From positions 4,301 to 68,300 of the forward strand of contig JAFSKF010000055.1 of the NCBI GenBank assembly GCA_017449065.1: a stretch of DNA of 64,000 bases. Reading direction: 5' to 3'. Origin of the DNA: Bacteroidales bacterium. Lineage in GTDB: Bacteria > Bacteroidota > Bacteroidia > Bacteroidales > UBA3663. The notes beneath the pieces were generated by a model, which worked only from the letters and a program-made list of their open reading frames with translations, had not been told where the DNA came from and ran no database searches. The translations under genes and the position numbers were made by a program. Below, one piece after another: positions 26,435 to 41,952 of the stretch. How positions within the stretch are numbered: position 1 is the stretch's first letter; every line of letters begins with the position of its first letter.

Positions 26435-26555
26435 CCTGACACCTGACATTTAAATTTTCCAGATTGTCTTGTACTGAAATAGGTTGACTTCTGAAAACAT
26501 GAGAAACACTCGGGGCAGCCATGCGGCAAAAAAACATCACATTTCCGGCAAAATA

Positions 26556-26587
26556 TTTGGAAGTGTCGTAAAAAATGCGTATATTTG
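26556..26587 (+). promoter_or_regulatory. Promoter of the MmeI-like RM gene
   Basis: TTTG (26556-26559), a 20-nt spacer, then TATATTTG (26580-26587). The ATG is at 26659. Confidence 0.6.
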
Positions 26588-26658
26588 CATCATGAAACAA
26601 CTCCCTCTGAATCACTGTTTCATACGAATGCAAACAACAGAATCACGGCACCGATAAG

Positions 26659-29589
26659 ATGAAGACCGATAAACAGATGGCTGCAGCTGCAGCGAAATTC
26701 GCCCAGAGATGGAAAGGCAAAGGCTATGAGCGCGGACAGAGCCAGCTGTTCTGGGCCGACCTGCTCACCAGCGTCTATGGCGTGGAGAACCTTCCGGAGT
26801 TCGTCCGCTACGAGGAGCAGGTCACTTCGATGGTGGATAGCACCAACTTCATCGATGTGCACATCCCATCAACAAAAGTGCTTATCGAGCAGAAATCCAT
26901 CCATGTGGATTTGCGCAAGCCCATCAAGAAAGGCGACGGCTATATCACTCCCTTCCTGCAAGCCAAGCAATACATCGTGAACATGCCGCAGAAGGAGCAT
27001 CCCAAATGGGTGGTGACCTGCAATTTCAAGTCGTTTCTGGTTTACGATATGAACCAGCCTAACAAAGAGCCGGATGAAATTCTTTTGGAAGACTTGGGGA
27101 CGGAATACTACCGACTGAAGTTTCTGGTCGATGCACAGAGCGAACATATCAGCAAGGAGATGGAGGTGTCGATGCAGGCCGGCGAGATTGTGGGCAGAAT
27201 CTACGACGCCTTGCTGAAGCAGTATGACGACAATTCGCCCGAAGCCCTGCGCTGGCTCAACATCCTCTGTGTGCGCATCGTGTTCTGTCTGTATGCCGAA
27301 GATGCGGGCGTGTTCGCCAGAGACCAGTTCCACGACTACCTGATCCGCTACGATGCCGACGACCTGCGCAATGCCCTGATCCGGCTGTTCGACGTGCTGA
27401 AGACCCCGACCGAGAAACGCAGCAAATACCTCAAGGACGACCTCAAAGCCTTCCCCTACACCAACGGCGGCCTGTTCGAAGAGGAGATAGAGATTCCGCA
27501 GTTCACCGACGAACTCAGGCAGACGCTGCTGCACAATGCGAGCCTCGACTTCGACTGGAGCAAGATCTCGCCTACCATCTTCGGAGCCATGTTCGAGAGC
27601 ACGCTCAATCCGGAAACGAGACGTTCCGGCGGTATGCACTACACCTCGATCGAGAACATCCACAAGGTCATCGACACGCTGTTTCTGAACGATCTGTGCA
27701 GGGAATTCGACATCATTCTGGAAGAGAAAGTCGAACGGCAGCGCGTAAAGCGGCTCGATGCCTTTCAGGACAAACTTGCCTCGCTCACCTTCCTCGATCC
27801 GGCTTGCGGCAGCGGCAACTTCCTCACCGAAACCTATCTTTCGCTGCGACGTCTGGAGAACGACGTTATCCGTGCCAAATATCACGGTCAGTCCATGCTG
27901 GGCGCCTTTGTGAATCCCATCAAGGTCAGCATCCAGCAGTTCTATGGCATCGAAATCAACGACTTTGCCGTCACCGTTGCCACCACAGCCCTATGGATCA
28001 GCGAGGCCCAGATGCTGGCAGAAACGGAGCGCATCGTGCATCAGGACATCGACTTCCTGCCGCTGAAGCCCTACCATAATATCCGCGAGGGGAATGCGCT
28101 CCGAATGGAGTGGGATGTGATTGAAGAAAAGTCGGATATTCCTACGATTCATGCAGAAAAAGTACACCTGATTGTTGAATCGGAGCCGAAAATGGTCAAA
28201 GATTCTTCTGTTGTCGAATACGGAGAGCTGAATGTAATAACGAAGCATTTTGAAAGCGCCAACGAACCGGAGAGTAAGTTCCGACGGGTACATTACGACT
28301 ACATCATCGGAAATCCGCCGTTTGTAGGTGCCAACATGATGAGCAAAGAGCAACGTGCAGACCTTCGCCACGTTTTCGGTTCAAAGTGGAAGAACATTGG
28401 TGAAATGGATTATGTGACAGCATGGTATATGCAAGCGGCCCGCGTAATGAAAGGAAGGGATACCCGTGCTGCGCTTGTTTCTACCAACAGTGTATCGCAA
28501 GGAGAACAGGTCGCTAATTTGTGGCAACCTCTCTTCGAACAGCTTGAAATGCATATTGATTTTGCACACAGAACTTTCCGATGGGATAGCGAAACGACAC
28601 AAAAAGCACATGTACATTGTGTGATTATTGGTTTCAGTAATGCAAAAAACAAGGCTCCCAAGATAATATATAATGGAGAGAATGTGCGAGAGGCAGCGAA
28701 TATTAACGCCTATCTTATGGATGCTCCCAATGTGTTTGTCGGAAGTCGAAGTAAACCATTGTGTGACGTTCCCGAGATTCGCAAGGGAAACCAGCCGACC
28801 GATGGCGGACACCTAATTATAGAATCGGAAGATCTTGAAGCGTTCCTTGCACGTGAACCGAAGGCAGAAAAATTCATCAAACGGCTGATTGGTGCTAAGG
28901 AATTTATCAATAATAAGTTACGATATTGTCTGTGGTTGAAGAATGTATCCCCTGCTGAATTAAGGCAGATGCCTGTGGTTATGCAACGTATAGAGGGCGT
29001 TCGTCAAATGCGCAAAACAAGTAGCGATCCTGCAACGAGAAAACTAGCTGATACTCCTTGGCTCTTCCGAGAGACTAATAATCCTGAGACGTATATAATT
29101 ATCCCGTCTGTATCGTCGGAAAAACGGAAATTTATTCCGATGGGCTTTTTAAAGTCCGATACAATACCGACCAACCTCGTTCTTATCATTCCCGATGCAA
29201 CGCTCTATCACTTTGGCATCCTTGAGAGCAATGTTCATATGGCGTGGATGCGAGCTGTATGCGGAAGATTGGAAATGCGCTATCGTTACTCAAAAGATGT
29301 AGTTTATAACAACTTCCCTTGGCCTAAGCCCTCCGAGGAACAAAAGATGAAGATTGAACAGACGGCACAAGCCATTCTTGACGCACGTGCTCTCTATCCG
29401 GATTCTTCTCTGGCAGACCTCTACGACGAACTGACAATGCCCGTAGAGCTTCGTAAGGCTCATCAGGAGAACGATCTGGCGGTGATGCAAGCCTACGGCT
29501 TCCCGGTCAGAAATACGTTTACGGAAAGCCAATGCGTGGCAGAACTGTTTAAGCTCTATCAGGAAATGACTGAAAAGAAAGGGAAATAA
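26659..29589 (+). CDS. Type IIL (MmeI-family) single-polypeptide restriction endonuclease / N6-adenine DNA methyltransferase
   Basis: 976 aa. The N-terminal PD-ExK-type motif D66-X10-E77-Q-K79 (FIDVHIPSTKVLIEQKS) matches the MmeI D-X9-EXK arrangement. The SAM motif is FLDPACGSGNFL, the catalytic motif is YIIGNPPFVG, and a long C-terminal target-recognition region follows. Confidence 0.85.
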   Translation: MKTDKQMAAAAAKFAQRWKGKGYERGQSQLFWADLLTSVYGVENLPEFVRYEEQVTSMVDSTNFIDVHIPSTKVLIEQKSIHVDLRKPIKKGDGYITPFLQAKQYIVNMPQKEHPKWVVTCNFKSFLVYDMNQPNKEPDEILLEDLGTEYYRLKFLVDAQSEHISKEMEVSMQAGEIVGRIYDALLKQYDDNSPEALRWLNILCVRIVFCLYAEDAGVFARDQFHDYLIRYDADDLRNALIRLFDVLKTPTEKRSKYLKDDLKAFPYTNGGLFEEEIEIPQFTDELRQTLLHNASLDFDWSKISPTIFGAMFESTLNPETRRSGGMHYTSIENIHKVIDTLFLNDLCREFDIILEEKVERQRVKRLDAFQDKLASLTFLDPACGSGNFLTETYLSLRRLENDVIRAKYHGQSMLGAFVNPIKVSIQQFYGIEINDFAVTVATTALWISEAQMLAETERIVHQDIDFLPLKPYHNIREGNALRMEWDVIEEKSDIPTIHAEKVHLIVESEPKMVKDSSVVEYGELNVITKHFESANEPESKFRRVHYDYIIGNPPFVGANMMSKEQRADLRHVFGSKWKNIGEMDYVTAWYMQAARVMKGRDTRAALVSTNSVSQGEQVANLWQPLFEQLEMHIDFAHRTFRWDSETTQKAHVHCVIIGFSNAKNKAPKIIYNGENVREAANINAYLMDAPNVFVGSRSKPLCDVPEIRKGNQPTDGGHLIIESEDLEAFLAREPKAEKFIKRLIGAKEFINNKLRYCLWLKNVSPAELRQMPVVMQRIEGVRQMRKTSSDPATRKLADTPWLFRETNNPETYIIIPSVSSEKRKFIPMGFLKSDTIPTNLVLIIPDATLYHFGILESNVHMAWMRAVCGRLEMRYRYSKDVVYNNFPWPKPSEEQKMKIEQTAQAILDARALYPDSSLADLYDELTMPVELRKAHQENDLAVMQAYGFPVRNTFTESQCVAELFKLYQEMTEKKGK

Positions 29590-29763
29590 AGGGTCTCTCC
29601 TTCAGCCAGTCGAACCGGCCTTTATCGGCTTCATGCTGATGCCACGAAGTCCAATAGACGGATGCGGGAAGGCTGTTTCTGCATAAAAGGACGCCCATTT
29701 TCGGGAGTCCTTTCTGAAAAATATGCTTAGAAACACAAAAACAGCTACGAAAACATATAAGCA

Positions 29764-31209
29764 TTAGTTAGAAATCGTCAAAGTTGTCTTATCGCAGATC
29801 AATCGGAAACCGACATAAGCGGCTTTATCTTCCGTGAATGCCAAAGAGAAATTAACTCGATTATTAATTAAAAGAGCGTTAGATACAGGTGTAATTGCAT
29901 TTTCTGCACTATTAAAATAGCCGCCCATATATTTATAGGCGTAATACACATTATACGTATGGGTACTTCCTGTATTTGTCCATTCTCCCACATTTCCACT
30001 CATATCATAAAGGCCCAACTCATTAGGAAGTTTCTGTTTAACCCCATGAGGCGTTCCATTACTGTTTAATGAGAACCACGCGACATCTGCAGCTATATTT
30101 CCTCCACAATAGGTTGTACTCTTCGATAAATTCCCTCCTTTGGCTGCAAAAGACCATTCAGCTTCGCTTGGTATAGAAAAAACACTCCCTGTTTCTAAAT
30201 TTAACCTGCTAATAAATGCATTGCATTCGCTTAACGAAACGTTTGTCACTGGCATACTTGGATCCTTTATCGTTGACGGATTCGTCTGCATAACAGCTTC
30301 CCAAAGTTCCTGAGTAACCTCAGTTTCTCCCACATAATAGCAATTTCCATTTAGGCCCGAAACGCCATTATAGACTTTCATCATGCGGAAACTAACTCCA
30401 GCAACAGTAAAATCCTTAAAACGGACTGCTTTCCAGCCATTCATATTTTCAGAGGTCGGGATATTCAGATAACCGCTTTTTCCTTGTGCCAGGACTTTCG
30501 AACTAACTGTTTTTTCAAACGCCAGGTTGTTTGCCCTATCGTGTATGGTTATTTTGCGATTATCCTCTTCTTCAAAAAAGCCGTAGTAATAATCTGAAAA
30601 TCCGTCTTTCAGAACGCTGCCATCAAAAACAGAATCTCCCTTAACAAACTCATTATCTTCCAGACTGTAACTTCGATAAAAGGATATTCCTTCTGCTATA
30701 AAAGATTGCTTGGATGTACCTTTTAGCCTGATTCGTCCTGTCATAGGCTTTAAAATCGCATCCACTTTAACTACTTTGTCGTTGAACGAATAAGTGGCAC
30801 TATTATCTGCAAAAATAGCCGTTGTCTTGTTCAATGTAACTGCACTGTAGGAACTTTCTGCGGCATTTTCAAAATAATAACATTCGCATACGGCGTTATC
30901 GACCTCAGTCAATGAACCATAAATCTCCAAATCCCACTTTGATGCTGCGGAACTATATTTTGCCATTCCGCTGATTCTATCGTTTCCTGACGAAAACTGA
31001 AAATATACCTTTGAACCATCTTCCCAAGTTTCGGCTAAAACAGACCGAGTAGTACCCTCACTGTCGAAGTCTTCCTTATCTGTATTCAGTTCAATCTCCG
31101 CATAAGTTACGACTCTATCTTCTTTAGGCTGAACCAAATCTTCTGCATCATTAGAACATGACGCTATCAGAAAAGCCAAAGGAGTAAATAAGACAAGTAA
31201 TTTCTTCAT
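29764..31209 (-). CDS. Surface lipoprotein: paralogous N-terminal ~230-aa domain plus C-terminal FGE-sulfatase-fold domain lacking the catalytic Cys pair (operon gene 7)
   Basis: The lipobox is LIASC, followed by the acidic stretch SNDAED. FGE-fold motifs are present: GETEVTQELWEAVM, ECNAFISRLN, PSEAEWSFAAKGG and LGLYDMSGNVGEWT. No CxxxxC occurs where FGE has its active site. Confidence 0.8.
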   Translation of the reverse strand: MKKLLVLFTPLAFLIASCSNDAEDLVQPKEDRVVTYAEIELNTDKEDFDSEGTTRSVLAETWEDGSKVYFQFSSGNDRISGMAKYSSAASKWDLEIYGSLTEVDNAVCECYYFENAAESSYSAVTLNKTTAIFADNSATYSFNDKVVKVDAILKPMTGRIRLKGTSKQSFIAEGISFYRSYSLEDNEFVKGDSVFDGSVLKDGFSDYYYGFFEEEDNRKITIHDRANNLAFEKTVSSKVLAQGKSGYLNIPTSENMNGWKAVRFKDFTVAGVSFRMMKVYNGVSGLNGNCYYVGETEVTQELWEAVMQTNPSTIKDPSMPVTNVSLSECNAFISRLNLETGSVFSIPSEAEWSFAAKGGNLSKSTTYCGGNIAADVAWFSLNSNGTPHGVKQKLPNELGLYDMSGNVGEWTNTGSTHTYNVYYAYKYMGGYFNSAENAITPVSNALLINNRVNFSLAFTEDKAAYVGFRLICDKTTLTISN

Positions 31210-31278
31210 AGTATGCTTTGTTTAGATTTATCATTATGACATTTATTAGCCACTTTATTTTCGTTATCAAATAGAATC

Positions 31279-32778
31279 CTACAACGGAATAACGACAGGT
31301 TGTTTCCCACGATATGCGGGTTGAGTCATACCAATGCGTGCACCTGTATAGGTGGGATCACATATCACATATTTCCTGTTATCAACCATTACATAATCCC
31401 CAGAAACCTCCTGATGGAAATTCACTGCGCTCCAAAGATGTCCTGGCGAATAGAGCAAAACTACATCCAAACCCACTAATTTACGGACCAGAAGAGATAA
31501 TAATATAGACCGGTCCTCACAATCGTTATTCGGGTAATAGAAATTCTCCTCAAAAAAGAACGGTTTCTCATAACCGAACTGTTCGTTGTCGGTTGCATAG
31601 CTAAAACCATATTGGAGGAAATCCATCAGCATTGAGACTTTTTCATACTCTGTCTTTCCGTCAAGTGCCTTCCGAAGAGGTGGCATCAACTGTCTGCCGA
31701 CATCTTCCGACAAGGGCTGCCGTGCATAAAATCCCCAAGGATAGCCACAGAAATAAGGTTCTGATTCATAGTAGTCCATCAGATTCTTATTGACACTAAC
31801 AGAGACTTTAACTTCTGGATAACGTTGGGAATAAACCGTTCTCTTTTCACTTTCAATATTACTTAACACCATTTCAGAAGGGCACTCAAAGTCAATTGGA
31901 CGTATGGCGTCTTTCATATTCAGACGATAAGTGTAGATCTGTTCGTTTTTTATGTTTGTGTCAAGAATATAATATGTCTTACCGTCAATTGTCAAGAAAG
32001 CGAAGGTGTATGCTTCCATCGTAAATGGACAAAGAATCAGCAACCGGTTGCTTGCGGATCTTGCCATACGCACATCATAACCCAACTGATTCATTAACCA
32101 TGCCTGCAACAGAACCGCTTCATTTCCTTGTGTGTCTTCCACTTTCCGTGAAACGGATTCACAAAGTTTGAAAGTTGCCCATCCATTCAATTTCATATTC
32201 CGCTGCAAATTCGAACAGTCAGCAACGAACGAACCCGTATTTACAGACGCCAATTTATACAAGCAATCAGCCACGTCTTTTTCCGTGCAGGATGCAAGTC
32301 GGAATTTTAATTCATCGGTAACCGAAATACTGCAACCCGTTCCAAAAAAAATCACATTAATCTTCTTTGGTTCGCCCTTATCCCCCTTGGGAACTTCTGG
32401 AACCACTATCGGAACTGGTTTGACAGGCTTCTTATCTGGTAAAATCTCACCATGAGGAAGTGGAGAAGGTTCCACTGGAGCCACATCTTCTTTCGGAAGG
32501 ACTACAGGTGGAACAACAGGTTTGGGTTCCGTGTGTTTCTTCCTGCCAGGCAAAACTTCGAATAAATCCCATTTTTGCCGAGCATAGGCTGCAAACTCCT
32601 CATTCTTTTGTTTCCGATACTGTTCAAACTTCCGATATTGTTCCGTGCGATAGTCCGAAAATTCCGCCCTCTTCTGATTCCTGAAAGCCTCAAATTCAGA
32701 CTTTTTGTCAAATTGGGCCAGCACTGTCACAGATAACAGTGCACCAAATAGTGATAAAACAATTCTTAGTTTGAACAT
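31279..32778 (-). CDS. Secreted transglutaminase-like (Cys-His-Asp papain-fold) protein (operon gene 6)
   Basis: 499 aa. Order of parts: signal peptide, charged helical segment, Pro-rich linker, then a C-terminal core of DCEDRS..GHLWSAV..ICDPT that matches the transglutaminase-core pattern. Confidence 0.7.
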   Translation of the reverse strand: MFKLRIVLSLFGALLSVTVLAQFDKKSEFEAFRNQKRAEFSDYRTEQYRKFEQYRKQKNEEFAAYARQKWDLFEVLPGRKKHTEPKPVVPPVVLPKEDVAPVEPSPLPHGEILPDKKPVKPVPIVVPEVPKGDKGEPKKINVIFFGTGCSISVTDELKFRLASCTEKDVADCLYKLASVNTGSFVADCSNLQRNMKLNGWATFKLCESVSRKVEDTQGNEAVLLQAWLMNQLGYDVRMARSASNRLLILCPFTMEAYTFAFLTIDGKTYYILDTNIKNEQIYTYRLNMKDAIRPIDFECPSEMVLSNIESEKRTVYSQRYPEVKVSVSVNKNLMDYYESEPYFCGYPWGFYARQPLSEDVGRQLMPPLRKALDGKTEYEKVSMLMDFLQYGFSYATDNEQFGYEKPFFFEENFYYPNNDCEDRSILLSLLVRKLVGLDVVLLYSPGHLWSAVNFHQEVSGDYVMVDNRKYVICDPTYTGARIGMTQPAYRGKQPVVIPL

Positions 32779-32784
32779 ACCAAC

Positions 32785-33636
32785 TTAGAAATTATAAGTC
32801 AATGAAAGTCCGGCATAATCAGGCCCTACGGTCGGCACCATACCGAAACGGTTCTCTCCGGCAGGTTTCACCTTTACTTGCCTTGCGCCCTTTGCCACAG
32901 CAGCATCTAAGACATTATAGACCCAGACAGCAATTCCGGCACCAATGCATACATTACGTCCCGTTTCCCAGTTAGATTTTTTATCCTCATACTGTTTTGC
33001 AAATTTGGGAGTTTCTTTAATTTTACGCTCATAAGAACTACATTTGTTTTCGCAAAACAACATTCCGGATACCGCAGCAGCCTCAGCTGCAAAAAAACAA
33101 ATACCCTTCACCCGGCTACCTTTATACCACTGCCCCGCTCCAGGGACAACTGACATCAGCACAGGAGCCACTCCATAAGAAGTCGTTAGATAGGTCCGGT
33201 CGAATACGGGATGATCCTCAACTGCAACCATAAACAATGTATGCATCTTGACCAATCCTTGTTCTTGGGTAACATATTCATCAACTGGATAAGCCTGCAG
33301 TTCAAACTGTTTACCCGACACCTGCATCCTAACATCCACCTGATCACGAATGGTCTCATTCATCTGTCCGTTGACGACTGTCTGTTCTATGTTGCGAAGC
33401 TTACCACTTTCAACATTCACCTGAACGGCACGGGTCAGTTGTTCGTTTGAAGCCAGTTTTTTCTTGGCTTCTTCGCGGGCACTTGCTATATCAGTTGCAT
33501 ACGAAACCACTTCCACAAACTTGTAGGTGTGGTTCATTTCCTGTGGGGTATTGCCGACCCACCTGGGCTTTTGTGCCACCAATGTGGTGGACAAAAGTCC
33601 AAGTAAGACAAAACAGATATCACGGAGTTTTATCAT
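32785..33636 (-). CDS. Secreted protein with LPP20-like N-domain and hydrophobic C-terminal region, PGAGQWYKG motif (operon gene 5)
   Basis: 283 aa with a signal peptide. The C-terminal half has 2-3 hydrophobic segments resembling Bacteroidetes DUF5683 and ends in ..LSLTYNF. The family assignment is tentative. Confidence 0.5.
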   Translation of the reverse strand: MIKLRDICFVLLGLLSTTLVAQKPRWVGNTPQEMNHTYKFVEVVSYATDIASAREEAKKKLASNEQLTRAVQVNVESGKLRNIEQTVVNGQMNETIRDQVDVRMQVSGKQFELQAYPVDEYVTQEQGLVKMHTLFMVAVEDHPVFDRTYLTTSYGVAPVLMSVVPGAGQWYKGSRVKGICFFAAEAAAVSGMLFCENKCSSYERKIKETPKFAKQYEDKKSNWETGRNVCIGAGIAVWVYNVLDAAVAKGARQVKVKPAGENRFGMVPTVGPDYAGLSLTYNF

Positions 33637-34214
33637 AATCCTAACTTACCTTGTAGTTTCTTAAGCTCTTCTTTGTTCTCTTCAATGAACTTCTGCCTGT
33701 CAAAATCGGTCTGAAGAATTTCATCCTGGGTCAACCGATTATAGGCATCATCTAACAGTTTATCGGTTGTCTGGGTTAACTCGATACAAACATACGCCGT
33801 AATTGTCTTATCCGGATTATCGTATATCGACGGCTCACCTATCACTTTGTAGCTCAGCACTTGAGAAATGTAGGTTTTTACGTGATTCTGCACTTCCTGT
33901 TCCGTGAGTCCACGGTTATCAATCTGATTGGTTTTATTGTAGCGGTCGCGCACACCGATGATAGCCGACTGGATGCGACCTGCAAGTAGCGCGACAGCTG
34001 CATTTTCTGCATTCTCCAATGCCACATCTTCAAGACTCGATGTTGCAGAAGAAGCTGCCCTTAGGTTTTTACCTTCCTTTTGTGCTAACTGGTATGTCGG
34101 ATCTACCGTGCGTCGAACCCTACCCGCTGTATCAACAGCAGCTTTCTTGGAACCACAAGAAACAAACACCGTGGCAGTCATCATCATTGCTGCCAATAAC
34201 ATTAACTTTTTCAT
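33633..34214 (-). CDS. Small lipoprotein, LPP20/FlgP-like (operon gene 4)
   Basis: 193 aa. The lipobox is VFVSC, followed by basic residues GSKK. It overlaps the next gene by 4 nt (ATGA). The fold assignment is tentative. Confidence 0.5.
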   Translation of the reverse strand: MKKLMLLAAMMMTATVFVSCGSKKAAVDTAGRVRRTVDPTYQLAQKEGKNLRAASSATSSLEDVALENAENAAVALLAGRIQSAIIGVRDRYNKTNQIDNRGLTEQEVQNHVKTYISQVLSYKVIGEPSIYDNPDKTITAYVCIELTQTTDKLLDDAYNRLTQDEILQTDFDRQKFIEENKEELKKLQGKLGL

Positions 34215-34242
34215 AGAGGTTATTTTAGTTTATTGTTACTAA

Positions 34243-35607
34243 TTAATAAGATAATAATCTCAAACCTATAGCATATGAAGCCGAAGTAAATGAAGAATTA
34301 GAACTATATGATGAACATTTGACATAATTCTGACTATCACTATAGTATCCTCCATAATAAGAAAATGAATTACCTGATGCCAAAGTCATTTCTGATACAT
34401 TGCCGCTCATGTCATAAATTTCCAGTTCGTTCGGCTTCAAGGTCTTCACATCATGTCTCGAAGAATTACTATTGCCAGAATACCAAGCAACCTCAGCAAC
34501 AGAATTGCTCCCAGAGTAAGTATATCCCTGGGTTAAATTTCCGCCTTGAGCGGCAAAGAACCACTCAGAAGCAGTAGGCAAACGGAAGTTTTCTCCGGTT
34601 TTGGCATTCAGTTTCGCAATGAAAGTAAGACAATCATTGTAAGATACATTGGCTACCGGTAAATTATCTCCTGAAAGATTCGTGTTCATCACCGCATTCC
34701 ACAATGCCTGGGTAACCTCAGTCTCCCCAATGAAGAAACTATAATAGGAAGCGTTGCCTACCACACGAATCATTCGGAAAGACACCTTTCCTATCGAATA
34801 GTCCTTAAACTTAACAGTTGTCCACCCGCTACGTTTGTCAAGCGTCGGGATATCGAGATATCCACTTTTGCCGACTCCCAGCGCATTACTTCCGAAAGTA
34901 CGTACAAACGAGACATTGTTCTCCTTATCGTTGAAAATCAACTCTCGGTTATCTTCGTCTGCAAAGAAACCGTAGATATAGTTTGAATAACCGTCTTTTT
35001 CTGTTGTTGAGATTATACTCGGGGCAGCAGATTCGAAGGTATTGCTTTCCAAATTATAGTTAGTATAGCAAGTTACACCATCCAGAAAAAACTCCTGAAG
35101 AGCAGATCCTTTCATGCGGATTCGGCCAGTCATGGGTTTCAGGTTTGCTGTCACTTTCACCGTATTATCTTCAACTGAATACGAAGAAGATTTATCGATA
35201 AAAATCGCTGTTGCGTTTGTTAAAGAAACCGATCTGTATGTTGCTTCTCCTGCATTTTCGAAATAATATGCCTCACACTGACCATCATTGGTGATCGGAA
35301 GGGAACCATAATACTCGATGGTCCAGGATGAAGAAGATTTGCTATACTCTGCCACTCCGTCAACAAGAGAATTACCCACCGAAAACTGAAGGTAAACCTT
35401 GGAGCCATCGTCCCAGGCATCAGCAGCAACTGCGCGAGTTGTCCCTTCGGAGTCGAAGCTCGGCTTGGCGCTGTTGAACTCCATCGTAGCATAATGAACT
35501 TCACGCTCTTTGGTTGGAGGTTCCAAATTATCGATATCGTCACTAGTGCACGACACCGAAATCAAAGTCATTACAACGAATGACACTAAATAATGTAATT
35601 TTTTCAT
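34243..35607 (-). CDS. Surface lipoprotein, paralog of 29764-31209 (N-domain plus cysteine-pair-less FGE fold) (operon gene 3)
   Basis: I prefer the start at M15 (MKKLHYLVSFVVMTLISVSC, ATG at 35605-35607). The lipobox is followed by the acidic stretch TSDDID. By eye, roughly half of the aligned residues are identical to gene 7. Confidence 0.8.
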   Translation of the reverse strand: MKKLHYLVSFVVMTLISVSCTSDDIDNLEPPTKEREVHYATMEFNSAKPSFDSEGTTRAVAADAWDDGSKVYLQFSVGNSLVDGVAEYSKSSSSWTIEYYGSLPITNDGQCEAYYFENAGEATYRSVSLTNATAIFIDKSSSYSVEDNTVKVTANLKPMTGRIRMKGSALQEFFLDGVTCYTNYNLESNTFESAAPSIISTTEKDGYSNYIYGFFADEDNRELIFNDKENNVSFVRTFGSNALGVGKSGYLDIPTLDKRSGWTTVKFKDYSIGKVSFRMIRVVGNASYYSFFIGETEVTQALWNAVMNTNLSGDNLPVANVSYNDCLTFIAKLNAKTGENFRLPTASEWFFAAQGGNLTQGYTYSGSNSVAEVAWYSGNSNSSRHDVKTLKPNELEIYDMSGNVSEMTLASGNSFSYYGGYYSDSQNYVKCSSYSSNSSFTSASYAIGLRLLSY

Positions 35608-35639
35608 AGCTTTTAAATAAGTGTTATACATTAATATTT

Positions 35640-37307
35640 TTAATTCCAATCTTCATCATTGTCGAATTCTTTCTTATCAATATTTCCGATACCCGTAGGA
35701 TTCTCGTTCATATCTTCATCCGAACCATAGCCTTCTTTGCCCAGAGAACCTTCTGTAGATGGATTCCCGTTCAAATCTTCATCCGAACCATAGCCCTCTT
35801 TACTAAAAGTGCCTTCGGCAGATTGATTCTCGTTCAAATCTTCATCCGAACCATGTCCTTCTTTGCCGATTGTTCCCTCTGTATTAGATCCGACATTAAG
35901 ATCTTCGTCTTCCCCAAAGCCTTCCTTACCGATAATACTTTCAGAAGATGATTTTCCATTTAAGTCTTCATCCTGTCCATAGCCTTCTTTATTAATCGTA
36001 CCCTCAGATGAAGTCTCATTCGTTAAGCTATCATCATCTCCGTAACCATCCTTACCAATGGTTCCTTCAGAAGACGTATTTCCTGTCAAATCTTCCTCTG
36101 TGCCATATCCGTTCTTTTCGAAAGAACCCTCTCCATCCGCTGAAGGATTCAAGTCCTCATCCTCTCCATAGTGTTGAACACCGAACTCCGTTCCATCCTC
36201 TTCTTCTGACAAAGTGGTAAACTGAACGACTTCGCCATAAGAAGAGCCTCTTTCGTTAGTCGCGAAAGAACGAATGAAATAAGATGTCTTTGCTGTCAAC
36301 ATTGCCAACCGGGTCTCTAACATAGAAGACTTGCCACAAACCACTTTTGTTCCGTTATCAAAGGATGGCTTATTTGATACTGAATAGATAAATCCTGCTT
36401 CTGAAAGCGTTCCGTTCCCCAAATCAGACACGGATGCTATCGCCGTTGCGAAATGACTGCGAATTTTGCTGACTTCAACAGCAGAAACCGTTGGCAAGAC
36501 AATTTCTTTTTGATTTTCAATATTTACAAGAGTCCAACCTTGCAATACATTGTCAGTGCTTGGAAGAGAAATAAAACCGCTCTGCCCGGCAGCAAGGACA
36601 GCATCGTCAAAACTGCGAATAAAAACGCCTTGTCCAGTTGCATCGACAACCAGTTGACGCTGAGAAACATTAGAAAAACCAACATAGAAATAATCGGTAT
36701 CTCCAGACTTGTCGAATGAAGAAGATATTTTATTTTTGCTGATTTCAAAAGTATTAGTGGTAATGTTATATTCAGTATGATACTGCAATCCAGAAACACC
36801 AAATTTTGCTGATGCCTGCCCTTTGAAACGGACGCGTCCGGTACGGGGGGAAAGCAATAACTTGACAAACATTTCCGAATCCTCGGTGAATGTGAAACTA
36901 CCCTCAACATCCTGATAGATGGCAGAACGTGCATTTAAAGAAACTGATTGTGATGAAGTTCCTGCATCATTTCTGAAAAAATAAGCCTCACAATCTCCAT
37001 CCGTATCCGGTTCTATCTGTCGGGAAGTAGTTATGGTCCACTGTCCGTCTGTCTGACTATAGTTGGCAACACCGGGAATCCGATTGTCTCCAATCTTCAA
37101 CTGCAAGTATAACCGAGCACCTTCCTCCCAAGCATAAGAAGAACGTGTCGGCTGACCGAATCCTGTTAATTCGGCTTCGAGAAATAACCGGTATGAAAAA
37201 AGGGATTCCGGCTTCGAAGCTGGTCCTGAAATCTCCGATTCCCGATAACAGGATTCTGTCAACAGTGACAATAATAGGGCTATGCTATATATGCATATTC
37301 TTTTCAT
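35640..37307 (-). CDS. Lipoprotein: shared N-domain, one Fn3-like module, then nine 21-aa acidic repeats (operon gene 2)
   Basis: 555 aa with the lipobox-like LLTESC. The N-domain aligns with genes 3 and 7 (..LSPRTGRVRFKG.. versus ..LKPMTGRIRLKG..). The C-terminus is ..DNDEDWN. Confidence 0.75.
   Translation of the reverse strand: MKRICIYSIALLLSLLTESCYRESEISGPASKPESLFSYRLFLEAELTGFGQPTRSSYAWEEGARLYLQLKIGDNRIPGVANYSQTDGQWTITTSRQIEPDTDGDCEAYFFRNDAGTSSQSVSLNARSAIYQDVEGSFTFTEDSEMFVKLLLSPRTGRVRFKGQASAKFGVSGLQYHTEYNITTNTFEISKNKISSSFDKSGDTDYFYVGFSNVSQRQLVVDATGQGVFIRSFDDAVLAAGQSGFISLPSTDNVLQGWTLVNIENQKEIVLPTVSAVEVSKIRSHFATAIASVSDLGNGTLSEAGFIYSVSNKPSFDNGTKVVCGKSSMLETRLAMLTAKTSYFIRSFATNERGSSYGEVVQFTTLSEEEDGTEFGVQHYGEDEDLNPSADGEGSFEKNGYGTEEDLTGNTSSEGTIGKDGYGDDDSLTNETSSEGTINKEGYGQDEDLNGKSSSESIIGKEGFGEDEDLNVGSNTEGTIGKEGHGSDEDLNENQSAEGTFSKEGYGSDEDLNGNPSTEGSLGKEGYGSDEDMNENPTGIGNIDKKEFDNDEDWN
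35643..36209 (-). repeat. Coding tandem repeat, 9 x 63 nt (21 aa), consensus xNxSxEGTIGKEGYGxDEDLN
   Basis: The YG/FG/HG-acidic-(L/M/W)N motif recurs at residues 380, 401, 422, 443, 464, 485, 506, 527 and 548. The period is exactly 21 aa, and the protein ends at the end of unit 9. Confidence 0.85.
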
Positions 37308-37331
37308 AATGTCAATTTGCTGTTATAAACG

Positions 37332-40300
37332 TTAGTTCCAATCTTTGTCTTCACCATAATCGTCAAAATCCACGTCATTCCCAGCGGGCTCTGCTGCTGT
37401 GGTAAATGTCACTTGTTCGCCCAAGGTCGTACCTTTTTCATTAGTAGCATAAGCTCTGACGTAGTATGTTGTCTCAGGCAAAAGTGTAGATATTTTAACT
37501 GATAAGTCGCTTGTTTTTCCACAAGACACCTTATGGTTGGACATTACAGGATTAGAAGAAGTAGAATAAACGAATCCTGCATCACTGACCGACCCGTTTC
37601 CTGCAGAAATAACGGATGCAGAGAGCGAAACTGATTTGTAAGTCACTCGACCAACGCTGACATTAGTCACAGAAGGCGGCACAATTTCGAGTGTCGCAAA
37701 ATCTGTCTCCTCTCCGTAACTTATACCAGCTTCATTGATCACATATGCCCGCACGTAATAAGTCGTATTATCCGACAATCCAGTCACGGTTTTCGAGAAA
37801 TAGCCGGTTTGTACACCCCCACAACTGATTCTCGTTGCATTGTTCACTATCGGTTCTGGAGACTTGGAATATACGAATCCGCAATCTACTATCGTCCCAT
37901 CTCCGTCACTGACAATCGAGCTACGGAAGGTGGCAGAACCGGTTCCGATACTCGATACTGCAACTTTAGCCGATTGAGGCAATTTGATTTCGTGAGTGGT
38001 TTTGAATCCGACATTGTTTCCATAAAAAGTTTCTCCGTCTTCGGTCTGAACATAAGCACGGACATAGTAATCTGTTAATTCAGACAAACCCGTAATGGTC
38101 AATAAAAATCGGTCTGTATATGCTGTCGAATACATATGATCATCGGAAATTGTCGGATAAGGAGACTTACTCCAACAAACACCCCGTTCCGCAATAGAAT
38201 GTCCACCTTTGTCAGATATCGATCCTCCTGTTGTTGCCTTATCATGAATGACATCGCTAACAGCAATGGTTGTCAAACTTACAACATCGTAAGCCGTCGT
38301 AAAAGAAACATCTTCGCCATAGGCTGTTCCGACAGAATTCGTTGCATAGGCCCTGATGTGATAAGTCGTATGCGGCAGAAGGTCTGTCAACTTAGAGGTA
38401 TAAGCTCCGACCACTGTTGCAGAACCCAGAGTTGTCTTATGATCCAATAACGTTGGATTAGAAGTCGTATTCCACACATGTCCATGTTGAGTAATACCAG
38501 TTTCATCACCGATTCTAAGAATGTTACCGGAAGCTGTAGCTTCTCGAGCCTGAACGCTCATAATCGCATCAGTTTCTACTAATGGAACCTTATTCTCATA
38601 AGCCGTTTCAAAAGTTACATCATTGCCGTAGTACGTTTCTCCGTCTGCGGTAAGTACGTATGCCCTCACATGATAGACCGTTTGTTCGTTTAATCCAGAA
38701 ATGCGAATACTGTATCGGTCTGTCGTTTCCTGTGAGCTGAGTTTATCGTCTGACGTTGTCGGATTATTAAAGGTGCTCCAGCATATTCCCCTTTCTCGAA
38801 CCACATGTCCTCCTTTATCCGAAATGATTCCTCCAGTAACGGCAGAGTTGTAGGTTATACCGGAAACTTCCAACGTTGCCAAAGTGACATCATCGTAAGC
38901 CGTAGTAAACATCACATTTTCACCATACGCTGTGCCGGTAGAATTGGTTGCGTAAGCGCGCACATAATAGGTTGTGTGAGGTTGAAGCTCTGACAGTATC
39001 GAAGTGTACGTTCCAATCGTGGAAGTGTAGCCCAACGACGTCTTGTTGTTTGCTGTTGTCGGATTGGTTGAAGTGCTCCATACATGTCCGTATTGTGAGA
39101 CGCTTGTCTCGTTGCCCATTGTCACTATATTTCCTGATACCGTTGCCTGTTTAGGGCGGATATCAGCGATCGATCCTGTTTCAACAGAAGGTACCTGAGG
39201 CTGGACTTTGGTTTCAAAAACCTGTTGTTCAGAATAGTTAATTCCTTCTGCATTTTCAGCGTATGCACACACATAGTATCTTGTCCCAGGTTGCAATTGA
39301 GAAGCTGAATATTCGAAATCCTTTGCCAACTCGCTATCTCCCAAATTGCACGACTGCCCCTTACCCAGCATCGGATGTTCTTCTGTACTCCAGCAAAAGC
39401 CGTGCTTTGTTACTTTTGCACTACCTAACGACACGATTCCGCCTTTGAATTTTGCTGAAACATAACCTATACTGTCAACAGTATAGAAAGTAACCGTCGG
39501 CTTGTCTTTCGATGGCACATTCATTCGGACTGGGATGTCTATATTGTCTTCACCAACTGTAAGCTTTAAGGCACCAGAATAGTCTCCAGCATTTAATCCT
39601 GTTCGGTCAACAACAACATTTAGCGCATCATTTCCAGATGTTATTGTACCACTCGTCTTCGAAGGAATAATCCAAGTATTCGACGGCGTCAGTGCATAGC
39701 TAACAGTCTGACTACCTGTATTTGTAAGCGTAAGTGTGATAGAAGTTGTAATGGAGCCAAAATCCAGTTCCTCCGGAGAAATTTTAACCGTCAGACCTTG
39801 AACACTGATATTAACTTTTACAACTGCACTACCCCCGTTACTTGAAATAGCAATAGTTTGCGAATATGTTCCTTTGGAAAGGCCTGTCCTATCTGCATTC
39901 AGAATTACAGACGAAGATTTCCCTATGACTGTAGTCCCTGAAGTCGGAATACATTGCAACCAGGAGATATCTTCGCTAATCTGCCAATTCAAGGCTGCTG
40001 CCCCGACATTTTTTATATCTAAGGTTAACGAAGTGTTTTCGTTGCCGAAATCAAAAGTTTCCTGACTGAGAGAGAGAACCGCCGTAGCTGGAGTCAAGTG
40101 GAAATCAAGTGTGGCTGTAACTCCTGTCTTAACAGCAACGCTCTTAACGTCTTCTTGGTATCCGCTTTTGGTGGCCTGAACACGATAGGAATCGGCATCT
40201 ATATCCTCAAAAGAATACATGCCATTCTGTCCTGTGGTTGTTGTTTTCCCAAGAGGAGACAAAGTCATTGCTACACCTTGGAGGGGTCTGTCCTGGGTAT

Positions 40301-40439
40301 CATAAACCGTACCGGAAATATTACCTGTAATGTCCACCGGATCTGAACTGCCACAAGACATCACGATAAGTGCTGGAAGCACCTCTAGTACATATCTGAT
40401 TATTTTTTTCTTCCGATGATTCATAAATAAAAAGTGCAT
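37332..40439 (-). CDS. Large surface lipoprotein: CarboxypepD_reg-like domain, two BACON-like domains, seven Fn3-like modules, acidic C-terminal tail (operon gene 1)
   Basis: 1035 aa (or a start at M6). The lipobox is IVMSC. The N-terminal domain carries GNISGTVYD..GVAMTL..TTTGQNGMYSF. The BACON-like pattern is L.LS...FDFG......L.I.N.G...L.W......W. The repeated modules carry G(F/I/V)CWS / HGHVWS ... YYVRAY. The C-terminus is DDYGEDKDWN. Confidence 0.8.
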   Translation of the reverse strand: MHFLFMNHRKKKIIRYVLEVLPALIVMSCGSSDPVDITGNISGTVYDTQDRPLQGVAMTLSPLGKTTTTGQNGMYSFEDIDADSYRVQATKSGYQEDVKSVAVKTGVTATLDFHLTPATAVLSLSQETFDFGNENTSLTLDIKNVGAAALNWQISEDISWLQCIPTSGTTVIGKSSSVILNADRTGLSKGTYSQTIAISSNGGSAVVKVNISVQGLTVKISPEELDFGSITTSITLTLTNTGSQTVSYALTPSNTWIIPSKTSGTITSGNDALNVVVDRTGLNAGDYSGALKLTVGEDNIDIPVRMNVPSKDKPTVTFYTVDSIGYVSAKFKGGIVSLGSAKVTKHGFCWSTEEHPMLGKGQSCNLGDSELAKDFEYSASQLQPGTRYYVCAYAENAEGINYSEQQVFETKVQPQVPSVETGSIADIRPKQATVSGNIVTMGNETSVSQYGHVWSTSTNPTTANNKTSLGYTSTIGTYTSILSELQPHTTYYVRAYATNSTGTAYGENVMFTTAYDDVTLATLEVSGITYNSAVTGGIISDKGGHVVRERGICWSTFNNPTTSDDKLSSQETTDRYSIRISGLNEQTVYHVRAYVLTADGETYYGNDVTFETAYENKVPLVETDAIMSVQAREATASGNILRIGDETGITQHGHVWNTTSNPTLLDHKTTLGSATVVGAYTSKLTDLLPHTTYHIRAYATNSVGTAYGEDVSFTTAYDVVSLTTIAVSDVIHDKATTGGSISDKGGHSIAERGVCWSKSPYPTISDDHMYSTAYTDRFLLTITGLSELTDYYVRAYVQTEDGETFYGNNVGFKTTHEIKLPQSAKVAVSSIGTGSATFRSSIVSDGDGTIVDCGFVYSKSPEPIVNNATRISCGGVQTGYFSKTVTGLSDNTTYYVRAYVINEAGISYGEETDFATLEIVPPSVTNVSVGRVTYKSVSLSASVISAGNGSVSDAGFVYSTSSNPVMSNHKVSCGKTSDLSVKISTLLPETTYYVRAYATNEKGTTLGEQVTFTTAAEPAGNDVDFDDYGEDKDWN
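37980..39191 (-). repeat. Tandem duplication of a two-module (~202 aa, ~606 nt) unit inside the Fn3-like array
   Basis: Residues 417-618 (PSVETGSIADIRPKQATVSGN..) and 619-820 (PLVETDAIMSVQAREATASGN..) align colinearly with many identical blocks, for example TAYGE(N/D)V.FTTAYD and DKGGH...ERG.CWS. Confidence 0.6.
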
Positions 40440-40513
40440 TCGTAATTTGTAATAAACTCTGCTATGACGACTATTAAAGTGTTACAATAAAAATAAAAGC
40501 AGGCAAACAGTTT

Positions 40514-40663
40514 CTACTCAAGATGGTAAAAACTGTTGTCTGTCTTAAAGAGAAGATATGAGAAAACCCTGAAATTAAAAATCAAATGAGAAATACCCCC
40601 CCCAATTAAATTCGGGAGAAGAGAATATACTTTGATCTCAGTTATATGGGTTCTTGGTTTCAT
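40514..40663 (-). other. 49-codon upstream ORF in the operon leader, containing a G8 tract
   Basis: Hand translation gives MKPRTHITEIKVYSLLPNLIGGGISHLIFNFRVFSYLLFKTDNSFYHLE*. It is below the 60-aa cutoff of the ORF track. Whether it is translated is unknown. Confidence 0.25.
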
Positions 40664-40703
40664 GGAGTGTTTTTATTAAGCTTCAGATAATTATCTTGCG
40701 CGG

Positions 40704-40731
40704 CAAAGATAAAAAAAAAATTTAGGACAAA
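40704..40731 (-). promoter_or_regulatory. Likely promoter of the seven-gene operon, with an A10/T10 tract in the spacer
   Basis: On the minus strand: TTTG (40731-40728), a 16-nt spacer that includes a T run, then TATCTTTG (40711-40704). I found no other TAnnTTTG between here and the start codon. Confidence 0.45.
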
Positions 40732-40838
40732 CAACTTATTTATAAAAAAAAGACCAAAATTGTGTGCATTTAATGAAAAAATATGTTATACAACACATTA
40801 TTAGGACCATTCTCTTTCTGGAAAGCCCACCAATCTAT

Positions 40839-40891
40839 ACGGAAAGCCAATGCGTAACCAAGTTGTTGAGTTATATCTGGGAATGACTGAA
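40839..40891 (+). pseudogene. Degenerate second copy of the 3' end of an MmeI-family gene
   Basis: The first 17 nt are identical to 29521-29537 (acggaaagccaatgcgt). Overall 42 of 54 hand-aligned positions are identical, with one 1-nt gap. It encodes ..YTESQCV.. compared with ..FTESQCV.. in the intact gene. Confidence 0.5.
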
Positions 40892-40909
40892 TATTTAAAC
40901 TATACAAAA

Positions 40910-40929
40910 GTGCAAGCAATTGCCTGCAC
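40910..40929. terminator. Palindromic hairpin downstream of the gene remnant
   Basis: The sequence gtgcaagcaattgcctgcac pairs at 9 of 10 positions around a central aatt. AT-rich sequence lies on both sides. Confidence 0.35.
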
Positions 40930-41060
40930 TTAATATTTATGAATCCCAATGACTCTTAATTCGTTATTTCCACGCTTGAATCGCTTAAATTATGCTATTA
41001 GATAGAATAGCAGACAACCTGATATCGCGAAATAGTGGACTTAAAAACAACTGTCCCTGA

Positions 41061-41738
41061 TCACTTTTCATGCACAGCGCGAACTGCACAACAAAAATAC
41101 AGGTCGCATATCATAAACTGTTTTTTAGAAGTATCGGTGTTAAAATTCAGATGATTGCAACCATACTCGTATCCATTAACGATATAAACCTCATCGGCAT
41201 CAGGTGTACCACACCAATAATTACCTTCATAGCTGATATTGGTATTATCCGTAAACTCAAAATCCATTGAAGAAAAAGACTCGCTCAAATAGTTACTTCC
41301 CGAATTAGGCAAAAAGATAGAATTGCCATTTTTTCCTGTGACACGAAAACCATTGTGTCCATTAACAGTTTCAACATTCCATTCACATTCGTCAACCAAT
41401 TCCCTCATTTCTTTACCTGCTGGCATTCTCCAACCATCTCCCATCATCACCTTAGCTATATCTTTGTCCGTTCCACTAACGTTCATACTTTCTAGCTTAG
41501 GAGATTTGACGGTTCCGGTAACATTCCCCAATGGAACTCTGACACCGACCTCCTCTGGATTCTCGGCACCTACATTGCAAACTGCCCAGTTTACACTTAA
41601 GCCCAAATCTACTCCATAGGATGCGGACTCCTGAATGGAAGCCAATTCTTGTGTATTTTCCGTTTTACTGCTTTGGGAACCGCATCCTGCAAATACAACA
41701 AATGCCAAGATGTTAGCAACAATTAAAAACTTTTTCAT
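41061..41738 (-). CDS. Lipoprotein with FISUMP/DUF1566-like domain
   Basis: I prefer the start at M24 (MKKFLIVANILAFVVFAGC), which lies downstream of the minus-strand -7 box TATATTTG (41779-41786). Motifs NWAVCNVGA and GDGWRMPAGKEMRELV resemble the Fibrobacter-paralogous/DUF1566 pattern (W+.P...E...L). Confidence 0.6.
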   Translation of the reverse strand: MKKFLIVANILAFVVFAGCGSQSSKTENTQELASIQESASYGVDLGLSVNWAVCNVGAENPEEVGVRVPLGNVTGTVKSPKLESMNVSGTDKDIAKVMMGDGWRMPAGKEMRELVDECEWNVETVNGHNGFRVTGKNGNSIFLPNSGSNYLSESFSSMDFEFTDNTNISYEGNYWCGTPDADEVYIVNGYEYGCNHLNFNTDTSKKQFMICDLYFCCAVRAVHEK

Positions 41739-41952
41739 GATGTTAAAAATTAGTATTAATGAGATATGTTTACGGGTGCAAATATAAAGGAAAAAGCTTT
41801 TCGACAATCAAAACGCTTGCAGTTTTTTTGAAAAATCCGCTACATTTTCGCATCATGCTAAAAAAATGATAGGATTGGAATGTCCGAATTATTATATCAG
41901 GACTCATGCCATCTCAATGCTATCCTTTTTTGTCGGCCTTATCACAACGCCC

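Follow-up and report, generated by a model that had tools for sequence, protein, structure and literature searches.

A locus of seven genes (G1 to G7) was analyzed on the minus strand of a 64-kb window, the whole stretch of DNA under study, which comes from the chromosome of an uncultured Bacteroidales bacterium of the gut or rumen. We interpreted it as one of a recurrent kind of surface-adhesin loci in Bacteroidales that is akin to type V pili and so far undescribed, and in which a conserved trio of genes serves variable lipoproteins, and we give this interpretation about an even chance of being right. Among the major surface structures of gut Bacteroidales are type V pili and lipoprotein adhesins related to them.

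The core would consist of G4, an LPP20-like lipoprotein, G5, an LPP20-like/DUF5683 membrane protein, and G6, a secreted LapG-like protease. The cargo would comprise G1, a long stalk with an acidic tail; G2, a pilin-fold protein with an Fn3 module and nine copies of the tail motif; and G3 and G7, which are lectin-headed pilin-fold proteins. The N-terminal module shared by G2, G3 and G7 is called the N-domain below, and the C-terminal FGE/C-type-lectin-fold domain of G3 and G7 is called the head.

Relatives of G6 were located by a scan that took one genome per species. At least 567 places were confirmed in species-representative genomes, and the carriers included Bacteroides salyersiae, B. nordii, Parabacteroides acidifaciens, Odoribacter, Coprobacter, Segatella copri, Alistipes and many rumen and gut genomes. 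Neighbors were counted within six genes on the same strand in 67 of the 80 fetched G6 loci, namely those with at least 4 kb upstream. A G4-like gene stood near the G6 relative in 49 of these 67 loci, an Fn3-array lipoprotein in 25, a G5-like gene in 22, an FGE-domain protein in seven and an N-domain protein in three. Further partners included a DUF4384 protein, a protein that combines PEGA with a β-barrel, and LPP20-domain proteins about 600 residues long. Since the same gene set recurs in other genomes, the locus in the window is not due to chance.

Ten lipoproteins encoded between G4/G5 and G6 elsewhere shared a lipobox, a CarboxypepD_reg domain, BACON_2/Ig/Fn3 modules and a variable head (Laminin_G_3, Lcl_C or LRR). 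G1 belongs to this class of cargo. The common plan of variable lipoproteins between G4/G5 and G6, G1 included, supported a split into core and cargo. A first-pass annotation of the window had proposed genes 4–6 as an anchoring or processing core and genes 1, 2, 3 and 7 as displayed cargo, and the comparison of genomes bore out this split, with a conserved core and variable, adhesin-like cargo.

The loci were also approached from the side of the N-domain, by exact look-up of single relatives, and contigs of at least 11 kb were taken as informative; the contigs of four relatives (L085, L090, L092 and L094) were too short to inform. All five informative loci (L084, L086/87, L088/89, L091 and L095) held a G1-like gene, several N-domain proteins, G4 and G6. 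Three of the five also held G5, and three held a Peptidase_C14 protease. On a further short contig (L093), an N-domain gene was followed by a G5-like gene.

In some lineages, the G4–G6 pair looked like part of the core genome from its neighbors. It lay directly beside the cell-division cluster (murG, murC, ftsQ, ftsA, ftsZ) and gltX in L039, L054 and L075, and it adjoined pta-ackA in Bacteroides salyersiae (L042) and in a metagenome-assembled genome of Bacteroides (L060). Three clear G6 loci of Bacteroidales type were found in bins labeled Staphylococcus, Clostridia and Ruminococcus flavefaciens (L024, L033 and L066); these labels are probably binning errors in the public records.

Genes 4–6 might instead be a cassette with a general housekeeping function in the envelope, such as upkeep of the cell wall or the outer membrane, and a hot spot for unrelated, independently acting surface lipoprotein genes, whose products it would neither assemble nor process. 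Many loci with G4 and G6 but without adhesin-like neighbors, such as those beside pta-ackA or ftsZ-gltX, agreed with such a cassette. So did the variation of cargo between loci and the lower G+C content of the locus than of its flanks (given below), which would fit added genes. On the other hand, pilin-fold proteins stood beside G4 and G6 in all five informative N-domain-side loci, the cargo genes that separate G4/G5 from G6 were packed with very short gaps, the window even having an overlap of 4 nt, and the tail motif co-varied with the pilin-fold proteins. We consider the cassette rather unlikely. Even a housekeeping role for the G6 family would fill a gap, since the family occurs in hundreds of species genomes without annotation.

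Pilin fold of the N-domain and the acidic tail

The G3 and G7 proteins were 48% identical over their full length, and G7 and G2 were 31% identical over 215 residues (E 1e-33). A word-index homologue search with the N-domain alone gave no matches, and an exhaustive representative search gave a family of 581 representatives. In all 64 relatives examined, the N-domain was N-terminal and directly followed the lipobox, the Cys of which was nearly invariant. It was fused to FGE (23 relatives) or Lcl_C (14), and also to Big_2, BACON, Fn3, LRR, DUF285 and LamG domains. No Pfam family covered the N-domain in any of the 64, and no fimbrillin family of Pfam or NCBIfam was matched by these relatives or by the seven proteins of the locus.

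The structural model of G7 (pLDDT 86 overall and >90 over N-domain residues 61–280) contained two transthyretin-like β-sandwich domains with pilin topology. A Foldseek search with this model found 4eps (BACOVA_04982 'fimbrial protein', E 2e-6), 3ufi (BACOVA_04980), 5nfi (the anchor Mfa2, E 1.4e-5), 5cag, 3pay and 4gpv. These pilin matches had E values of 2e-6 to 1e-3 and probabilities of 0.98–1.0, with target TM-scores of only 0.2–0.43. Apart from the FGE-fold matches, everything found at E <1e-3 was a type V pilin. Judged from the model, the N-domain is not novel in fold and has the type V pilin fold.

A Thr-Arg pair was near-invariant in the N-domain family and lay in a low-confidence loop after strand 34–45 of the G7 model. 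Type V pilins are cleaved at Arg46 in FimA and at Arg43 in the Bacteroides tip adhesin BfrT. The Thr-Arg loop of the N-domain corresponds to this cleavage position.

These results bore on the claim of the first-pass annotation that the locus fits no described system, which it had set against an ordinary pilin N-domain in a known type V operon. The pilin fold was found, and a match to a known type V operon was not. The claim was too strong, as the N-domain has the type V pilin fold and the pilin-plus-lectin architecture has already been described.

Could G2, G3 and G7 simply belong to an ordinary type V pilus operon, as tip or accessory pilins joining stalk and anchor pilins encoded elsewhere in the genome, with genes 1 and 4–6 as bystanders? 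The pilin fold, the lipobox and the conserved Arg would be expected from this, pilin-plus-lectin is the described architecture of tip adhesins, and pilus operons are numerous in Bacteroides genomes (bioRxiv 10.1101/2024.11.15.621889). On the other hand, neither a FimA/Mfa1 stalk nor a FimB/Mfa2 anchor was detected in the window, and fimbrillin families were matched neither by the seven proteins nor by the 64 N-domain relatives. Described tip adhesin genes sit at the ends of operons that encode an anchor and a stalk (bioRxiv 10.1101/2024.11.15.621889), whereas the partners here and in the five related loci were G1-like, G4 and G6. We regard this alternative as unlikely. The locus is not a canonical type V operon, having no stalk pilin, no anchor pilin and no hydrophobic donor strand.

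The nine repeats of G2 and the C-terminal tail of G1 were the same motif. The consensus from 14 tails in at least eight loci was [IV]-D-x-[DN]-[DE]-[YFW]-x-x-[DE]-x-[DN]-W-[ND], and in 12 of the 14 it was followed by only 0–2 residues. G1-like proteins carried the tail in six of seven cases with pilin-fold proteins in the locus and in none of 44 cases without them (Fisher p = 4e-7). The seventh protein from the pilin-fold-bearing loci ended in ...EENNWTR.

Among the N-domain proteins, tails were present only on those without a head domain. Overall, they were confined to the presumed base and adaptor, and no protein with a head had one. In type V pili, the C-terminal strand is donated by base and stalk subunits, whereas a tip is an acceptor only, and the placement of the tails matched this polarity. 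We therefore propose that the products would form a short stalk-adaptor-tip structure. A role of the tail as a canonical hydrophobic donor strand was judged unlikely from its acidic composition, and canonical strand exchange is doubtful for the same reason. Tail docking, if it occurs, is probably of a different kind.

Predicted core proteins and lectin-fold heads

G6 had >925 relatives, with 31–44% identity among the matches listed, and none of the matches listed carried a Pfam domain or a name. Its AlphaFold model (pLDDT 89, pTM 0.86) consisted of a long N-terminal helix, a Pro-rich linker, a middle domain and a C-terminal α/β core. In a comparison with PDB structures, LapG came first (probability 0.96–1.0, E 8e-3 to 4e-2, target TM-score 0.44–0.47), followed by PNGase, menin, vasohibin and Rad4, all of them transglutaminase-like folds. 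The triad residues were invariant in all 31 aligned sequences: Cys420 (in NDCEDRS), His447 (in PGH) and Asp474 (in CDPT). The transglutaminase fold proposed for G6 in the first-pass annotation was thus backed by the model, the LapG and PNGase matches and the invariant Cys-His-Asp. The model points to a LapG-like cysteine protease of transglutaminase fold.

G6 was the sole protease in the window locus. The related loci provided another candidate. Genes for secreted, caspase-like Peptidase_C14 proteins of about 280 residues were present in L085 (2215–3105), L088 (12748–13584), L091 (9065–9871) and L095 (12270–13109). The Peptidase_C14 gene was placed between the pilin-fold genes and the G4–G6 pair; the window locus has none. 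Bacterial relatives of Peptidase_C14 often cut after Arg or Lys, which made this protease a candidate for Arg cleavage in the related loci.

The first-pass annotation had called G4 and the N-terminal domain of G5 LPP20-like. Neither gave a direct match to Pfam LPP20 (PF02169) at E ≤ 0.1, and only two of 33 G4-family members and one of 21 G5-family members gave weak profile matches. A reference alignment was made from the N-terminal domains of the LPP20-domain proteins of about 600 residues from related loci, one of which passes the Pfam LPP20 threshold. With hhalign, the G4 family matched this set with 94% probability (E 9e-8), and the G5 N-domain matched it with 91%, though this alignment partly covered signal peptides. 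G4 matched G5 with 92.5%. LPP20 structures headed the otherwise insignificant PDB lists of both proteins.

The hydrophobic C-terminal domain noted earlier in G5 was identified as DUF5683 (PF18935). Sixteen of the 21 family members matched it (best 4.9e-11), and G5 itself scored 23.3 bits against a cut-off of 26.7. Besides two hydrophobic helices and an aromatic residue at its end, the domain had a PGxGQxxKG motif that was invariant. No paper on DUF5683 was found.

The G3 and G7 heads matched FGE-sulfatase (PF03781) with 71.5 and 71.3 bits, respectively, against a cut-off of 23.3 (E about 1e-19). Both go under the name 'SUMF1/EgtB/PvdO family nonheme iron enzyme' at NCBI, and such above-threshold matches would be expected if G3 and G7 were enzymes of the FGE/SUMF1/EgtB/PvdO family in a periplasmic modification pathway. 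However, TvpA (2y3c), a ligand-binding variable protein, was by far the best match of the G7 head, at the top both by sequence (E 5e-20) and by fold (E 5e-15), and no bona fide FGE in the PDB matched this head at E ≤ 1e-3 by sequence search. The equivalog models of EgtB, OvoA and PvdO gave G3 and G7 only 20–29 bits against cut-offs of 360–500. The same N-domain was also interchangeably fused to Lcl_C, LRR, LamG, Big_2 and BACON binding domains. An enzymatic function is very improbable, and the FGE domains of G3 and G7 are predicted, from sequence and model alike, to be non-enzymatic binding heads. Membership of G3 and G7 in the PorK/GldK/GldJ group was rejected (21–41 bits against cut-offs of 350–458).

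A pilin fold joined to a C-type-lectin/FGE-fold domain is the architecture of Bacteroides type V pilus tip adhesins (bioRxiv 10.1101/2024.11.15.621889). With their pilin-fold N-domain and TvpA-like head, G3 and G7 looked like these tip adhesins.

The last 40 or so residues of G3 (34243–34420) were rich in Ser, Tyr and Asn (…CSSYSSNSSFTSASY…), could not be aligned to G7, and resembled a variable region diversified by a retroelement. If G3 and G7 were targets of a diversity-generating retroelement, the locus would be a hypervariable receptor cassette. The composition of this stretch and the TvpA-like fold of both heads would fit, and Bacteroides retroelements do diversify pilin-plus-lectin proteins (bioRxiv 10.1101/2024.11.15.621889). 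On the other hand, neither a reverse transcriptase motif nor a template repeat that matches one of the two C-termini was present in the 64-kb window. A retroelement was rejected for this window, and we hold the cassette to be very unlikely.

Operon, promoter and surroundings

The seven minus-strand open reading frames were recomputed, and their coordinates (29764–40439) and the gaps between them agreed with the first-pass annotation. From G1 to G7, the gaps were 24, 32 (with the G3 start at 35607), 28, −4, 6 and 69 nt, the G5 start overlapping the G4 end by 4 nt (ATGA). The true start of G1 is probably the ATG at 40424, and that of G3 is more likely the ATG at 35607 or 35631 than the TTG at 35649. 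The features are collected in Table 1.

Table 1. Coordinates of the genes, domains and regulatory elements of the locus in the window
Feature	Position	Strand	Remark
G1	37332-40439	-	1035-aa lipoprotein; proposed base or stalk
G1 CarboxypepD_reg domain	40092-40319	-	Pfam/NCBIfam
G1 BACON_2 domains (two)	39795-40082, 39528-39785	-	Pfam/NCBIfam
G1 Fn3-like modules (seven)	37404-39512	-	Pfam/NCBIfam
G1 C-terminal acidic tail	37335-37373	-	VDFDDYGEDKDWN-COOH
G2	35640-37307	-	555-aa lipoprotein; proposed adaptor
G2 pilin-fold N-domain	36513-37250	-	Arg55 codon 37143-37145
G2 Fn3-like module (one)	36195-36515	-	Profile match
G2 acidic repeats, nine x 21 residues	35643-36173	-	Last ends EFDNDEDWN-COOH
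G3	34243-35649 from TTG, 34243-35631 from ATG	-	Lipoprotein; proposed tip adhesin
G3 pilin-fold N-domain	34804-35550	-	Conserved Arg (Arg58) codon 35434-35436
G3 FGE/C-type-lectin-fold domain	about 34375-34737	-	Pfam
G4	33633-34214	-	193-aa lipoprotein, LPP20-like, basic residues after Cys
G5	32785-33636	-	283 aa; signal-peptidase-I leader, LPP20-like N-domain, DUF5683, C-terminal ...LSLTYNF
G5 DUF5683 two-helix hydrophobic module	32893-33159	-	Family profile
G6	31279-32778	-	499 aa; secreted, transglutaminase-fold core
G6 transglutaminase-fold core	31282-31611	-	Model and Foldseek
G6 triad	Cys420 31519-31521, His447 31438-31440, Asp474 31357-31359	-	Invariant in 31-sequence alignment
G7	29764-31209	-	481-aa lipoprotein; proposed tip adhesin
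G7 pilin-fold N-domain	30424-31158	-	Arg55 codon 31045-31047
G7 TvpA-like FGE/C-type-lectin-fold domain	29767-30417	-	Pfam, structure match
Promoter candidate, Bacteroides-type	40704-40731	-	TTTG-16 nt-TATCTTTG, upstream of G1
Inverted repeat, proximal arm	40418-40438	.	21 nt, overlaps G1 start region
Inverted repeat, distal arm	40925-40945	.	90% complementary to 40418-40438

Five lipoboxes (G1 VMSC, G2 TESC, G3 SVSC, G4 FVSC and G7 IASC) and two leaders of signal-peptidase-I type (G5 LVA|QKPRW and G6 VLA|QFDKK) were read from the sequence, so that all seven products have a predicted export signal, in agreement with the earlier claim. The Gln after the leader was nearly invariant in alignments of both the G5 and the G6 families. 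Bacteroidetes are known to prefer an N-terminal Gln after signal peptidase I cleavage, and the leader ends of G5 and G6 fit this preference.

Domains were called by Pfam and NCBIfam profile searches of the seven proteins. Nearly all domain calls of the first-pass annotation were reproduced, except that the LPP20 likeness of G4 and G5 appeared only at the profile-profile level. As it had stated, these searches found no SusC/D, glycosyltransferase, type IX secretion system (T9SS) C-terminal, ATPase or transporter domains in the seven proteins. Interpretations as a polysaccharide utilization locus, T9SS cargo, a curli-type system or a secretion system were rejected from the lack of SusC/D, Por_Secre_tail, CsgG, ATPase and transporter domains. 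In the NCBI annotation, the products appear as hypothetical proteins, as 'carboxypeptidase regulatory-like domain-containing' proteins or as members of the 'SUMF1/EgtB/PvdO family'.

The whole window was scanned for the promoter consensus TTTG-N17-23-TAnnTTTG. Twelve full-consensus matches were found against 1.35 expected; none was inside 29764–41060, and one was at 41779–41812, upstream of the next gene. The candidate upstream of G1, the only promoter-like element seen in the first-pass annotation, was confirmed in the sequence. At the sequence level the scan is consistent with one transcription unit for the seven genes, and is no proof of it. The 'repeat family' at 2539–2584, 26551–26596, 46658–46703 and 49035–49080 was the shared Bacteroides promoter consensus (TTTG … TAnnTTTGC).

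The arms of an inverted repeat bracketed about 490 nt that contained the G1 promoter, which made it a candidate invertible promoter. An equal or better repeat was obtained in none of 40 shuffles. Promoters of Bacteroidales that are invertible and phase-variable have this layout, and expression of the locus may be phase-variable through this element. The segment had the same orientation in both other contigs that hold this locus, no promoter-flanking inverted repeats were found in the related loci, and no invertase gene was seen near the G1 promoter.

The leader of about 265 nt (40440–40703) contained a terminator-like hairpin with a run of eight G (40596–40621), followed by a T-rich stretch. 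It could serve as an attenuator, or it could be a tract prone to slippage. No match to Rfam or known RNA elements was found in the locus or the leader.

The G+C content of the locus was 0.40–0.44, compared with 0.50–0.55 in its flanks. The low-G+C stretch extended over about 29700–42000 (0.38–0.45, against 0.50–0.55 on either side), which suggests that the whole block may have been acquired. No integrase, tRNA or flanking direct repeat was seen at this block.

Upstream of the locus, but within the low-G+C stretch, 41061–41738 (minus strand) encoded a separate lipoprotein of 225 residues with a weak Lcl_C (DUF1566)-like domain, preceded by its own full-consensus promoter (41779–41812, minus strand). 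Lcl_C is the second commonest head fused to the N-domain elsewhere. Farther upstream, 41953–43107 (minus strand) encoded a secreted protein of 384 residues with a weak PagL-like match, probably an outer-membrane β-barrel. The related locus L039 likewise begins with a barrel-like protein.

On the other side, a complete MmeI-type restriction-modification enzyme with all five MmeI domains (26659–29589, plus strand) converged on the end of G7. To its left were genes for a HerA-like ATPase (23053–24711), a SIMPL protein and an HD-domain protein. Together these are possibly a small defense cluster beside the low-G+C island.

Proposed assembly and comparison with known systems

From the folds, motifs, conservation and co-occurrence described above, we infer the following scheme of localization, cleavage, docking and G4–G6 function. 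Sec would carry all seven proteins across the inner membrane. Lipidation of the lipoproteins would follow, and since the Cys is followed by acidic residues, they would then be flipped onto the surface of the cell. As in type V pilins, the loop after strand 1 of the pilin-fold modules would be cleaved behind the conserved Thr-Arg; the cutting enzyme would be G6 here, or alternatively the extra Peptidase_C14 protease in related loci. G1 would stay lipid-anchored, G2 would dock on G1, and the Arg-cut G3 and G7 would dock on G2, giving a short stalk-adaptor-tip adhesin and no long polymer. G4 and G5 might supply an envelope platform, a role assigned to them only by association. Genes 4–6 may have an anchoring or processing role, as had been suggested in the first-pass annotation.

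In the literature consulted, a pilin-cleaving enzyme is named only for P. gingivalis, in which gingipains do the cutting; the Bacteroides study reports cleavage and names no enzyme (bioRxiv 10.1101/2024.11.15.621889). A bolder and improbable proposal is that G4–G6, with Peptidase_C14 in some loci, are the dedicated assembly and maturation machinery of a class of gingipain-independent pilus-like adhesins in gut and rumen Bacteroidales, with the acidic tag on the non-pilin stalk G1 and the adaptor G2 recruiting Arg-cleaved pilin-fold tips. If so, docking on the tag would not be the exchange of hydrophobic strands seen in type V pili, display could be branched and multivalent owing to the nine copies of the tag in G2, and G6 would be a maturation protease or a transpeptidase that fixes the joints.

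Several observations weigh against the interpretation as an adhesin locus served by the trio. At some loci, among them L028, L044 and L045, the G6 relative was accompanied by a G4-like gene alone, and cargo was not obvious; G6 need not act on adhesins, since such cargo-free loci exist. The likeness of the N-domain to pilins was at the fold level only, its profile finding nothing in the PDB by sequence, and no stalk of FimA/Mfa1 type or anchor of FimB/Mfa2 type was found in the seven genes and the 20 flanking open reading frames of the window that were scanned. The tail is strongly acidic, whereas type V donor strands are hydrophobic. G6 gave no Pfam match even at E ≤ 1 and no sequence-level link to LapG or to a protease family, and its best LapG match in Foldseek had an E value of only 8e-3 and a target TM-score of 0.47. 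The assignment of G4 and G5 to LPP20, made by profile comparison, is weak. Finally, some Bacteroides pilin-plus-lectin proteins stay periplasmic and do not reach the surface (bioRxiv 10.1101/2024.11.15.621889).

This type of locus ties pilin-fold tip adhesins to a secreted cysteine protease, two LPP20-like envelope proteins and a conserved C-terminal tag on their presumed partners. The trio and the tag are concrete candidates for dedicated assembly or processing factors and provide a testable docking motif. Cys420 of G6, Arg55/Arg58 of the pilin-fold proteins and the tail tryptophan are defined residues for mutation.

No description of this seven-gene set was found in the literature or in database annotation, and literature searches on LPP20 with transglutaminase and Bacteroides, and on DUF4384/PEGA/LPP20/FGE combinations, gave nothing relevant. 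By fold, the cargo proteins are of a known kind; as far as we found, no one has described the locus type, its conserved trio or the motif of the tail.

G4 and the N-domain of G5 were related at the profile level to LPP20/FlgP-type lipoproteins and are likewise small envelope proteins. Unlike these, they had no direct Pfam match, and neither the fusion to DUF5683 nor the link with a transglutaminase-fold protease has been described. TvpA (Treponema denticola variable protein 1), the best sequence and fold match of the G3 and G7 C-terminal domains, is itself a lipoprotein ligand-binding head whose C-type-lectin fold belongs to the FGE subtype. In G3 and G7, on the other hand, the head was mounted on a pilin-fold module, and the window had no retroelement.

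LapG of the LapG/LapA/LapD system of Pseudomonas and Legionella was the closest solved fold to G6, with Cys-His-Asp in both. LapG is periplasmic and cuts the N-terminal retention part of an adhesin; G6 is predicted to be secreted and is encoded beside large repeat adhesins. The two differed in that there was no sequence-level similarity and that G6, at 499 residues, had the extra N-terminal helix, Pro-rich linker and middle domain. The locus also lacked LapD, LapE, type I secretion genes and the di-alanine target motif, and the adhesins here are lipoproteins.

The differences from type V pili were in the presumed base G1, which was a CarboxypepD_reg-BACON-Fn3 lipoprotein and not a pilin; in the C-terminal extension, acidic here and a hydrophobic donor strand there; in sequence, as G2, G3 and G7 matched no fimbrillin family; and in G4–G6, since the descriptions of the fim and mfa clusters that were consulted list only pilins. 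As in type V pili, G2, G3 and G7 were lipoprotein precursors with a two-β-sandwich pilin fold, the loop behind the first (anchor) strand of the N-domain had a conserved Arg, G3 and G7 had the C-terminal lectin-fold binding heads of tip adhesins, and C-terminal extensions were present on the presumed base and adaptor and absent from the tips.

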